From: Escherichia coli
GTDB lineage: Bacteria; Pseudomonadota; Gammaproteobacteria; Enterobacterales; Enterobacteriaceae
DNA: 64,000 nucleotides
Assembly: GCF_003334305.1 (NCBI RefSeq)
Contig: NZ_QOWS01000013.1
Strand: one strand, 5' to 3'
Under the pieces are notes generated by a model that was not told where the DNA came from, searched no databases, and was given only the letters and a program-made list of their open reading frames with translations. A program made the translations under genes and the position numbers. Within the stretch, counting starts at the first letter, position 1. The number at the start of each line of letters is the position of its first letter. Below, in pieces: positions 11,240 through 14,707 of this stretch.

Positions 11240-12124
11240 TTACTTTGCAATGAGATCGGGGTCAACTTCGCTTAACCGGCTTCGTTTTGACAGGTTGCCG
11301 GTCTTTCTTTTTTTCACTTTCGTCAGTTCTTCCGCAGAGTAATGCGACGCGACATCCAGCCGTCGAAGCCCCATTTTGATGTACTCGCTGTTGATCTCAA
11401 TACCAATGAATTTTCGCCCGCTGGAGACGGCTACGGCACCGGTAGTAAAGCTACCGGCAAACGGGTCGAGAACGATATCGCCTGGGTTGGAAGAGGCGAG
11501 AATAATGCGTTTCAGTAAGGCTTCCGGTTTTTGCGTCGGGTGGTTCTCATATTCATCCATCAAATAACGCACGCGCGGAAAATCCCAGACGTTACCCGGT
11601 ACTTTTTGATGATTGTATGGCTGTGGAGGATTTTTGCGATAATCGATCAACGCGCGCTGCGATCCGGTTTTGGCTTCTACCAGAATAGCATCACCGTTGA
11701 ATGTGTAGTTCTTTGCGTCTTTCACCATCATCAGGATGGGTTCGTACATGGAGCCGTAGTGTTTTTTCGCCTGTACTCCAGAACTGTCATATGACCAGAC
11801 GATGCGACTTTTGATGGTAAAAAGCTTGCGGCACTGGAGATCGATAAAGGGCATGTTTTCCGTGCTGTTCATGATGTACATGCTGCCCTGCTTTTTCAGA
11901 ACGCGGTGGCACTCTGCAATCACTTCAAACAGCCAGTCGATAAACAGATCTTCTTTCCAGGCTTCGATCAGACCATCAAAATTTTTACCGATGTTATATG
12001 GTGGGTCGGCAAAGATCAGATCGACACTTTCGGCGGGGATCTTTTTAAGTTCGGCAAGCGCATCACCGTGAATAATGGTCTTAGCTTCATTACCAAACCG
12101 GGTCGGTTCACATCCTGTTCTCAT
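11240..12124 (-). CDS. yhdJ: DNA adenine (N6) methyltransferase
   Basis: ORF contains the DPPY motif (…VDLIFADPPYNIGK…) characteristic of N6-adenine/N4-cytosine MTases; immediately downstream of fis. Confidence 0.92.
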   Translation of the reverse strand: MRTGCEPTRFGNEAKTIIHGDALAELKKIPAESVDLIFADPPYNIGKNFDGLIEAWKEDLFIDWLFEVIAECHRVLKKQGSMYIMNSTENMPFIDLQCRKLFTIKSRIVWSYDSSGVQAKKHYGSMYEPILMMVKDAKNYTFNGDAILVEAKTGSQRALIDYRKNPPQPYNHQKVPGNVWDFPRVRYLMDEYENHPTQKPEALLKRIILASSNPGDIVLDPFAGSFTTGAVAVSSGRKFIGIEINSEYIKMGLRRLDVASHYSAEELTKVKKRKTGNLSKRSRLSEVDPDLIAK

Positions 12125-12147
12125 GGTCACTCCCTTTGTGACACCTA

Positions 12148-12209: not shown

Positions 12210-12506
12210 TTAGTTCATGCCGTATTTTTTCAATTTTTTACGCAGCGTACCACGGTTGATGCCCATCATCAGCGCAGCACGGGTCTGGTTACCACGGGTG
12301 TATTGCATCACCATGTCCAACAGGGGCTGTTCTACTTCAGCCAGTACCAGCTCATAGAGGTCATTCACATCCTGACCATTCAGTTGAGCAAAATAGTTCT
12401 TCAGTGCCTGTTTAACCGAGTCACGCAGGGGTTTTTGGGTTACCTGATCCTGAGAGTTAACGGTAGAAACGGTCAGTACGTCAGAATTTACGCGTTGTTC
12501 GAACAT
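12210..12506 (-). CDS. fis: Nucleoid-associated protein Fis
   Basis: 98-aa translation [98 protein letters not shown] is Fis. Confidence 0.99.
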
Positions 12507-12531: not shown

Positions 12532-13497
12532 TTACGCAAAATTTTCGAAGTATGCCTCCAACGCCTCCAGCTGTTCGCTGGCATCCTCAATGGCGTTGAA
12601 TGTGCGCCGAAACTGGTCATTTGGAGCGTGTTCCTGGAGATACCAGGAAACGTGTTTACGTGCAATTCGGTACCCTTTTGCCGGACCATAAAAGTCATGC
12701 AGTTCCCGAACGTGCGCGCAAAGCAAGCGCTTAACCTCTGCCAAAGGCAGCGGGGGCAGCAACTCCCCAGTGTCCAGATAATGCTGGATTTCCCGAAAGA
12801 TCCAGGGTCTTCCCTGAGCTGCGCGGCCTATCATCAGGGCATCCGCCCCTGTATAGTCGAGCACAGCTCTGGCTTTAAGCGGGTCAGTAATGTCGCCATT
12901 CGCGATAACCGGAATGGAAACTTTCTGCTTAACTGCCCGAATACTGTCGTACTCAGCTTCTCCATTGAACAAACAGGCGCGTGTACGGCCATGAATGGTC
13001 AGAGCCTGAATGCCACAGTCTTCAGCCAGTTGGGCAATCTCTTCGCAGTTACGGTGTTCCGGTGCCCAGCCGGTGCGAATCTTCAGGGTAACAGGAACGT
13101 CCACTGCATTGACGACCTCGGTAAGGATCGATTTAACGACATCCGGGTACTGCAAGAGGGCTGAACCTGCGAGCTTGCGATTCACTTTTTTAGCCGGGCA
13201 ACCCATATTGATATCAATAATCTGGGCACCGCTTTCCACGTTAATACGTGCTGCATCTGCCATTTCTTTCGGATCGCTACCAGCAATTTGCACGGTGCGA
13301 ATACCGGGTTCATCAATGTGCACCATCCGTAAACGAGATTTGTCGCTTTCCCAAACCTGTGGGTTAGAAGACATCATCTCGGATACTGTCAATCCGGCTC
13401 CCATCTCGTAGCACAACGTCCGAAAAGGTCTGTCTGTAATGCCAGCCATGGGCGCTGCGATCAGGCGATTTCTGAGCTGATATTGTCCGATGCGCAT
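12532..13497 (-). CDS. dusB: tRNA-dihydrouridine synthase B
   Basis: 321-aa [29 protein letters not shown]… Dus family TIM-barrel; co-transcribed upstream of fis. Confidence 0.96.
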
Positions 13498-13825
13498 GAG
13501 TTAAGAAATGACCATACTGTGACTGCAAGGCGGCGTATATTACGCATTTTTTGCACGAGATGAAAGGCCAAACTTTGACCAATCCTCTGAGATGGATCAA
13601 AGAATTGCATTTAAAATGAGCGTGGTGCGATAATTACTCATAAAAATCATCATATTAGAAAATAGTGACTAAAATTTACACTCAAAGAAATTTGAGTAAG
13701 TTCTCAATTTTTCTTTATGAATGAAAATTTTGGCACGCAAATTTGCGTAAATAACCGGCAAATTTACGTGCCTTTTGTGAGCTTGCTCGCACTTCGCCCC
13801 GCGTCACCCTACGGCGATGCGAAGG

Positions 13826-14707
13826 TTAATTCTTACGACCGGTAATACGGCACCACTCTTCTTTTTCCACGACCGGGTCCAGTGCGAAGCTATCGGCATA
13901 AGCTTCACAAACGCTCTCTGCCTGGCTTGCCAGAATACCGGAAAGGCCCAGCAAACCGCCTGAAACCGGCAGGACGCTGATTAACGGTGCCAGTTCACGT
14001 AATGGGCCTGCAAGGATGTTAGCGACCACCACGTCGGCTTTCATTTCTTCTGGCTGATCTTTCGGTAAGTAGAGTTCCAGACGGTCAGAAACGCCATTAC
14101 GTTCGGCGTTGTCGCGGCTGGCCTGAATCGCCTGCGGATCGATATCAATACCAATGGCTTTTGCTGCACCCAGTTTCAGCGCCGCGATCGCCAGAATGCC
14201 GGAACCACAGCCAAAGTCGATGACTGTTTTACCGGTTAAATCGAGGCTGTCGAGCCATTGCAGGCACAGAGAGGTGGTTGGATGGGTACCCGTACCAAAC
14301 GCCAGCCCTGGATCTAACATCACGTTGACGGCGTTTTCGTCCGGCACATCACGCCAGCTAGGGCAGATCCACAGTCGTTCACCAAAGCGCATCGGGTGGA
14401 AATTATCCATCCATTCGCGCTCCCAGTCTTTATCTTCTAGTTGTTCGATTTTATGCGCGAAGCCTGCGCCGAGCAGCGGATGGTTTTCCAGAATCGCCAC
14501 CACGTCGTTCATATCGGTTTCAGCGTCGAACAGACCAATCACATCGGTGTCGCCCCACAGGCGCGTTTCGCCCGGCAGCGGCTCAAATACTGGCGTATCG
14601 TGGGTATCCTGAAAAGTGATAGAAACGGCACCCGCTTCCATCAGCGCATCGCTAAGATCTTCCGCGTTCGCGCCGGTGGTGTTCAGTTTCAGTTGGATCC
14701 AAGGCAT
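13826..14707 (-). CDS. prmA: Ribosomal protein L11 methyltransferase
   Basis: 293-aa ORF with SAM-binding motif (…[20 protein letters not shown]…); between panF and dusB. Confidence 0.95.

Follow-up and report, generated by a model that had tools for sequence, protein, structure and literature searches.

What does the spacer between prmA and dusB contain, and how much of it belongs to the promoter of the fis operon? We addressed this question in a window of 64,000 nucleotides of Escherichia coli DNA (the whole stretch that was analyzed), in which a preliminary description had read about 330 bp upstream of dusB as the dusB-fis promoter region. The open reading frames (ORFs) and the K-12 annotation gave exact coordinates, and the interval 13498-13825 proved to be the entire prmA-dusB spacer, 328 bp exactly. 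The upstream gene is prmA, which encodes the ribosomal protein L11 methyltransferase (13826-14707, minus strand, stop codon at 13826-13828 on the same strand), as identified from its ORF and from the RefSeq annotation of identical loci in K-12 and other E. coli. The first gene of the operon is dusB (12532-13497, minus strand, with its ATG at 13497-13495), and fis comes after it (12210-12506, minus strand); both were assigned from their ORFs together with the K-12 annotation. The ORF list then gives yhdJ (11240-12130, minus strand). The order prmA, dusB, fis, yhdJ, with all genes on the minus strand, matches the annotation of K-12 MG1655.

The alignment with K-12 MG1655 contained a single mismatch over the full length of the spacer, a G/A difference at about 13755, which falls in the loop of a hairpin in the distal part of the spacer. 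Additionally, a 701-bp query spanning 13498-13825 matched 5,426 of 5,426 complete E. coli genomes, many at 100% identity, and the features annotated under these matches were prmA and dusB. With a single base changed relative to K-12 and a match in every one of the 5,426 genomes, this spacer is the very DNA used in the characterization of fis P. We therefore regard 13498-13825, read on the minus strand, as almost certainly the DNA that controls the dusB-fis operon of E. coli: it is fis P itself, which is already known, and not just a relative of fis P, and no observation contradicted this identification of the locus. The alignment to the footprinted fis P region that the preliminary description had proposed as a check thus bore out its reading of the locus, while the minus-strand orientation of all the genes, which it had left unstated, has to be added. 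An Rfam search of 13300-14000 at a permissive threshold returned chance-level matches to eukaryotic miRNAs and snoRNAs only, at no more than 26 bits against thresholds of 48-80.

We took the position of the start site from the literature. The distance from the prmA stop codon to the primary fis start site has been given as 296 bp (Cameron et al. 2013, PMC3865300), which places +1 at the C at 13529 on the minus strand, eight nucleotides after the sequence TAATAT. This hexamer (13537-13542, minus strand) reads as the -10 element and lies inside a core that is invariant across species among the matches listed. A poor -35 element, TTTCAT (13560-13565, minus strand), stands 17 bp upstream of it, and a GC-rich discriminator, ACGCCGC (13530-13536, minus strand), fills the interval between the -10 element and +1. 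This discriminator has been described as the determinant of stringent, growth-phase and supercoiling control (PMC3865300, PMC4751926). A generic sigma-70 scan of both strands over 13300-14000 reported no promoter-like site, and its silence at fis P fits the poor -35 element. Downstream of the start, the dusB leader comprises 32 nt (13498-13529, minus strand), includes Fis site I and is predicted to be unstructured, with a folding energy of 0 kcal/mol. No obvious Shine-Dalgarno sequence was seen in this leader upstream of the dusB ATG. The -10 hexamer itself sits in a small inverted repeat, GCGTA-ATA-TACGC (13533-13545). Two "terminators" called by a generic scan coincided with this repeat and with the palindrome of Fis site II, GGTCAAAGTTTGGCC, and were set aside as false positives, since the symmetry of promoter and operator produces such calls.

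The preliminary description had spoken of multiple Fis autoregulatory sites, and a scan of the spacer with consensus strings quoted from published papers (GnnYAnnnnnTRnnC or GNNNAWWWWWTNNNC) found them readily. Matches with at most one mismatch were centered at -145, -103, -85, -44 and -20. These five matches in 328 bp compare with a mean of 0.48 in dinucleotide shuffles, about a 10-fold excess that was equalled in 0 of 500 shuffles, and with 0.18 per 328 bp over the whole 64-kb window. The 15-mer at -145, GTGTAAATTTTAGTC (13667-13681), is a perfect match to GNNYAWWWWWTRNNC, whereas those at -103, GAGTAATTATCGCAC (13625-13639), at -85, GCTCATTTTAAATGC (13607-13621), and at -44, GGTCAAAGTTTGGCC (13566-13580), carry one mismatch each. 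The last of these adjoins the -35 element and is the candidate for Fis site II; the candidate for Fis site I, GGTCATTTCTTAACT (13499-13513, centered at +24), has two mismatches. Weaker Fis-like 15-mers centered at -223 and -235, each of which deviates once from the relaxed consensus and twice from the strict consensus, overlap the distal hairpin.

Published work places FIS-I and FIS-II on either side of the fis start site and assigns autorepression to them (Cameron et al. 2013, PMC3865300). Our matches at +24 and -44 have the same arrangement around the start, which identifies them as the putative autoregulatory sites I and II. Judged from its sequence and position, the candidate site II at -44 is the presumptive main autorepression site. 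Pratt and colleagues, in 1997, reportedly gave the Fis sites as +26 and -42 and the center of the IHF footprint as -114. Offsets of about 2 nt for Fis and about 8 nt for IHF relative to those positions are expected from a different assignment of +1 and from a consensus that occupies one half of the IHF footprint. Single matches in the spacer are presumably Fis sites III-VI and the mapped CRP sites, with a numbering that may be about 2 nt off.

The same consensus scan, run for IHF with WATCAANNNNTTR as quoted from published papers, found a candidate core, AATCATCATATTA, at 13645-13657. It lies on the plus strand, antisense to dusB, is centered at -122 and agrees with the consensus at 12 of 13 positions, with one mismatch; an A-tract is located on its promoter-proximal side. 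IHF matches with at most one mismatch numbered three in the 328 bp against 0.83 in shuffled sequence, and 27 of 500 shuffles reached three, so that the enrichment is marginal by itself. The preliminary claim of IHF sites is supported by the core at 13645-13657, whose position is conserved across genera. IHF is an activator of fis (PMC4751926, PMC3865300).

CRP has been reported as a direct regulator of E. coli fis (PMC3865300), and CRP-like sequences were enriched in the spacer, with three matches of at most two mismatches against 0.13 in shuffled sequence and 0 of 500 shuffles reaching three. The best candidate is a palindrome, TGTGAGCTTGCTCGCA (13776-13791, centered at -254.5), that deviates at one position from TGTGA-N6-TCACA and is one of four CRP-like matches with at most one mismatch in the 64 kb. 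Its half-sites are kept among Escherichia while the 6-bp spacer varies. Two weak matches, TTTGAGTAAGTTCTCA (13691-13706, centered at -169.5) and TTTGATCCATCTCAGA (13586-13601, centered at -64.5), have two mismatches each and resemble the consensus only. We also observed that the palindrome at 13776-13791 sits between two hairpins downstream of prmA.

The base composition of the spacer had been described as AT-rich with repeated A-tracts, and this holds in part. The spacer is 61% AT, which places it in the top 3.4% of 328-bp segments of the 64 kb, but the AT-richness is confined to 13530-13772 (66% AT), and the prmA-proximal 53 bp (13773-13825) are GC-rich, with 38% AT. We counted nine A or T runs with a length of at least four, approximately three times the average of the 64-kb window. 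Dinucleotide shuffles of the spacer yielded 7.7 ± 1.8 such runs and reached nine or more in 167 of 500 cases; therefore, the number of A-tracts follows from composition. As the AA/TT periodicity at 10-10.5 bp was weak as well, we rejected an A-tract excess with helical phasing as a feature of this DNA.

The conservation of these elements was assessed from an exact 18-mer, TGCGTAATATACGCCGCC (-17 to +1), that was searched in one genome per species and returned at least 120 loci. Among the matches listed were Enterobacteriaceae, Erwiniaceae and unexpectedly many Aeromonas, and a dusB ortholog begins about 50 nt downstream in 115 of the 120 matches listed, with fis next wherever the fetched DNA reaches. 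When spacers of comparable length from 52 species were aligned, the matches listed shared a conserved block from -53 to +33, within which positions -17 to +1 are conserved by construction, as the same bases served as the search pattern. Upstream of -53, the IHF core was the only conserved island in this alignment among the matches listed. An alignment-free test gave the same answer. Among the matches listed, a Fis match centered exactly at -44 was found in 92 of 92 Enterobacterales and 16 of 16 Aeromonas, that is, in 108 of 108 species, and an IHF consensus exactly at -122 on the antisense strand in 60 of 92 Enterobacterales. The Fis match at the -145 position occurred in 28 of 92 Enterobacterales, and the Fis-like matches at -85, -103 and -223/-235 were essentially confined by position to Escherichia, again among the matches listed; the one at -85 is conserved within that genus. 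This map agrees with the published identity of E. coli and Salmonella around the start and their divergence upstream of -49 (PMC3865300). Overall, the core promoter and the autorepression architecture appear, from these sequences, to be conserved across two orders, Enterobacterales and that of Aeromonas.

The Aeromonas loci (L017, L018, L061 and others) deserve separate mention. They carry a 24-nt block, AAAAAATGCGTAATATACGCCGCC (-23 to +1), that is identical to that of E. coli, despite protein identities to E. coli of about 66% for DusB and about 71% for Fis. A 15-mer with the Fis consensus, GCTCAAATACTAACC, occupies the same -44 position in Aeromonas; the corresponding part of the window is 13529-13580. 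We also noticed, at loci such as L007, L011, L028, L058, L098 and L059, that the prmA-dusB spacer is bimodal in length in Enterobacterales among the matches listed, with a short class of approximately 290-440 bp (Escherichia, Citrobacter, Pantoea and others) and a long class of approximately 1,080-1,290 bp (Enterobacter, Lelliottia, Atlantibacter, Mixta and others).

The distal third of the spacer has a different character. The preliminary description had offered GCACGCAAATTTGCGTAAAT as an example of degenerate inverted repeats compatible with Fis and IHF sites. This sequence (13733-13752) covers the left arm and some of the loop of a longer inverted repeat, whose 15-nt arms at 13732-13746 and 13758-13772 are complementary at 14 of 15 positions. 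The inverted repeat is real, but it is not a conserved Fis or IHF site, and we reassign it to a hairpin downstream of prmA. On both strands, the element (13732-13772) is predicted to fold into a hairpin of 41 nt, in which arms of 15 bp enclose a loop of 11 nt; it occupies -203 to -243 relative to fis P, which is 54-94 nt beyond the prmA stop codon. On the minus strand, which is the prmA-sense strand, its folding energy is -26.3 kcal/mol (z = -5.3, with 0 of 200 shuffles as good), and on the plus strand it is -23.3 kcal/mol (z = -3.4), with TTTTGTG directly after the stem. Escherichia relatives keep the hairpin at -21 to -24 kcal/mol. Within the genus, we found no compensatory changes in it, only loop changes or single uncompensated stem mismatches, and in other genera the element could not be aligned in the 52-species comparison. 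Closer to prmA, a GC-rich stem-loop in the 3′ UTR, right after the stop codon (13797-13824, minus strand), is part of the minimum-free-energy fold of a 116-nt segment (-42.8 kcal/mol, z = -4.5). No U-tract follows this stem-loop, and its sequence varies within Escherichia.

Natural terminators have been reported to flank the fis operon (Gerganova et al. 2015). Similar to intrinsic and bidirectional terminators, the 41-nt hairpin is a stable stem-loop after a stop codon, with an A-run before it on the prmA-sense strand and TTTTGTG after it on the plus strand. Unlike intrinsic terminators, it has a stem that is AT-rich in the middle, an 11-nt loop and a prmA-sense U-run that does not touch the stem: in the tail, AAAAUUUUC, AAAA separates the two. 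A generic terminator scan called the hairpin on neither strand, and the TERMITe supplements gave no hit. Among the entries listed in one Term-seq dataset (Adams 2021), no 3′ end fell between K-12 positions 3,405,373 and 3,410,852 and none was assigned to prmA, which is a weak negative. On balance, we take the 41-nt hairpin to be most likely a prmA terminator or insulator, which may work in both directions. Elsewhere in the operon, the same dataset records RNA 3′ ends inside dusB, at K-12 positions 3,410,852, 3,410,997, 3,411,124 and 3,411,166 (approximately 12610-12925 of the window, minus strand). One of them lies 105 nt upstream of fis and was classed as an upstream-ORF 3′ end. These dusB-internal ends may bear on the post-transcriptional control of fis.

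The mechanism of fis P has been established in the literature, with Fis autorepression, IHF stimulation, CRP modulation and control by ppGpp/DksA and supercoiling through the discriminator (PMC3865300, PMC4751926), and the elements described above can be placed in it as follows. Sigma-70 RNA polymerase would start at the C at 13529 from the poor -35 TTTCAT, the -10 TAATAT and the GC-rich discriminator. The discriminator and, according to the literature, the start with CTP would confer dependence on negative supercoiling and sensitivity to ppGpp/DksA and growth phase. Fis would repress its own synthesis from two sites around the start, site II (-44, adjoining the -35 element) and site I (+24), and IHF at the conserved core 13645-13657 would bend the AT-rich upstream DNA and stimulate transcription. 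The additional upstream Fis-like and CRP-like sites may modulate fis P in Escherichia. Functionally, the part of the spacer nearest prmA, its distal third (13732-13825), would belong to prmA, with the GC-rich stem-loop and the 41-nt hairpin most likely ending or insulating prmA transcription, and on the opposite strand the hairpin may stop transcripts that leave the fis upstream region.

A different account would have the spacer harbor several promoters, upstream tandem ones as well as a divergent one, coupled through supercoiling and RNA polymerase occupancy, with the AT-rich upstream DNA acting mainly as a polymerase-binding or topological-switch module and not as a scaffold for Fis and IHF. 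Cameron et al. 2013 (PMC3865300) cite at least five start sites reported in the E. coli fis region, and the same work describes a second Salmonella fis start at -216 (PMC3865300); moreover, the plus-strand hairpin followed by TTTTGTG would suit a transcript heading toward prmA. However, the conserved start is chiefly responsible for fis expression (PMC3865300), and a later paper describes a single dusB-fis promoter. The silence of the sigma-70 scan on either strand of 13300-14000 and the poor conservation upstream of -53, save for the IHF core, among the matches listed, also speak against several promoters, and we consider this account unlikely. A mechanically called ORF of 78 amino acids with a TTG start (13364-13600, minus strand) overlaps the dusB start in a different frame. 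In favor of a real small overlapping gene, the frame stays open for 78 codons in E. coli, and E. albertii resembles it in this respect. However, its TTG lies 71 nt upstream of +1, in the stretch of the fis P core promoter and Fis site II, so that the start codon is absent from the fis P transcript. Furthermore, the ORF is out of the dusB frame and carries no annotation in K-12, its frame is open for anywhere from 13 to 113 codons in other species, and the promoter and dusB explain the conservation beneath it. The preliminary view that it is probably not real can be put more strongly, as a gene at this position is extremely improbable. Another mechanical ORF, of 42 amino acids on the plus strand (13717-13845), runs through the hairpin and reaches the 3′ end of prmA; the K-12 annotation lacks it, and we found no evidence in its support.

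For the repeat at 13732-13772, the alternative to a terminator or insulator is a protein-binding module of fis P, either as the Fis site farthest from the start or as two palindromic operators, GCAAATTTGC and GCAAATTTAC, with a spacing of 21 bp. Each arm is indeed palindromic, the two copies are separated by 21 bp or two helical turns, and the Fis-like 15-mers centered at -223 and -235 lie within the repeat. Ball and colleagues, in 1992, reportedly placed a sixth Fis site far upstream, at about -220, which counts in favor of protein binding here. On the other hand, over 200 bp separate the repeat from the start site, other Enterobacterales seldom have Fis matches in this interval (at most 0.07 per species per 10-nt bin among the matches listed), and a very low folding energy on both strands is unneeded for a Fis site. 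Additionally, the shortest Salmonella construct, truncated at -49, was still repressed by Fis (PMC3865300), which argues against a distal Fis module. We consider protein binding at the repeat possible but doubtful, and the hairpin reading and the distal Fis-site reading are compatible with each other. A broader proposal joins the hairpin, as two palindromes spaced by 21 bp, with the CRP palindrome, making 13732-13791 a previously uncharacterized bidirectional terminator or insulator that is possibly CRP-responsive. This is speculative and, in our estimate, quite improbable; if it were true, the module would keep the supercoiling-sensitive fis promoter apart from both prmA read-through and divergent transcripts that arise upstream. 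For the repeat itself, a terminator or insulator of prmA stays our preferred reading.

The region is well studied, and our analysis brings nothing new to its biology beyond small additions. One is the conservation map, in which, among the matches listed, deep conservation is limited to the core promoter, Fis site II and the IHF core. Another is the common -10/discriminator block together with the -44 Fis match in Aeromonas, and a third is the reassignment of the repeat to the hairpin downstream of prmA. For annotation, correct recognition of the region fixes the strand and adds no gene at 13364-13600.

Compared with known systems, the locus corresponds most directly to fis P of E. coli K-12 (dusBp), with which it shares the gene context, the -10 element, the discriminator, the start site, the flanking Fis matches and the upstream IHF core; the G/A at about 13755 is the sole difference in the spacer. 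In Salmonella Typhimurium, whose fis promoter region comprises Pfis-1 and Pfis-2, the region of the primary start is identical to that of E. coli, FIS-I and FIS-II are conserved, the autorepression is the same (Cameron 2013, PMC3865300), and divergence from E. coli is found only upstream of -49 (PMC3865300). However, the Salmonella spacer measures 628 bp, with more than 300 bp of extra DNA, has no CRP-consensus site and includes the second start at -216, which is anaerobically induced (PMC3865300). In contrast to this longer spacer, the arrangement in the E. coli window is of the ancestral type, with 296 bp. Similar to stringently controlled promoters, fis P is sensitive, according to the literature, to growth phase, ppGpp/DksA and supercoiling (PMC3865300, PMC4751926). 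In sequence, it also resembles them in its GC-rich discriminator, its poor -35 element and the Fis sites in its AT-rich upstream region. The rRNA P1 promoters are activated by Fis bound upstream, and their transcripts begin with a purine. At fis P, in contrast, the Fis site at -44 adjoins the -35 element and represses (PMC3865300), and the deduced start is a C.
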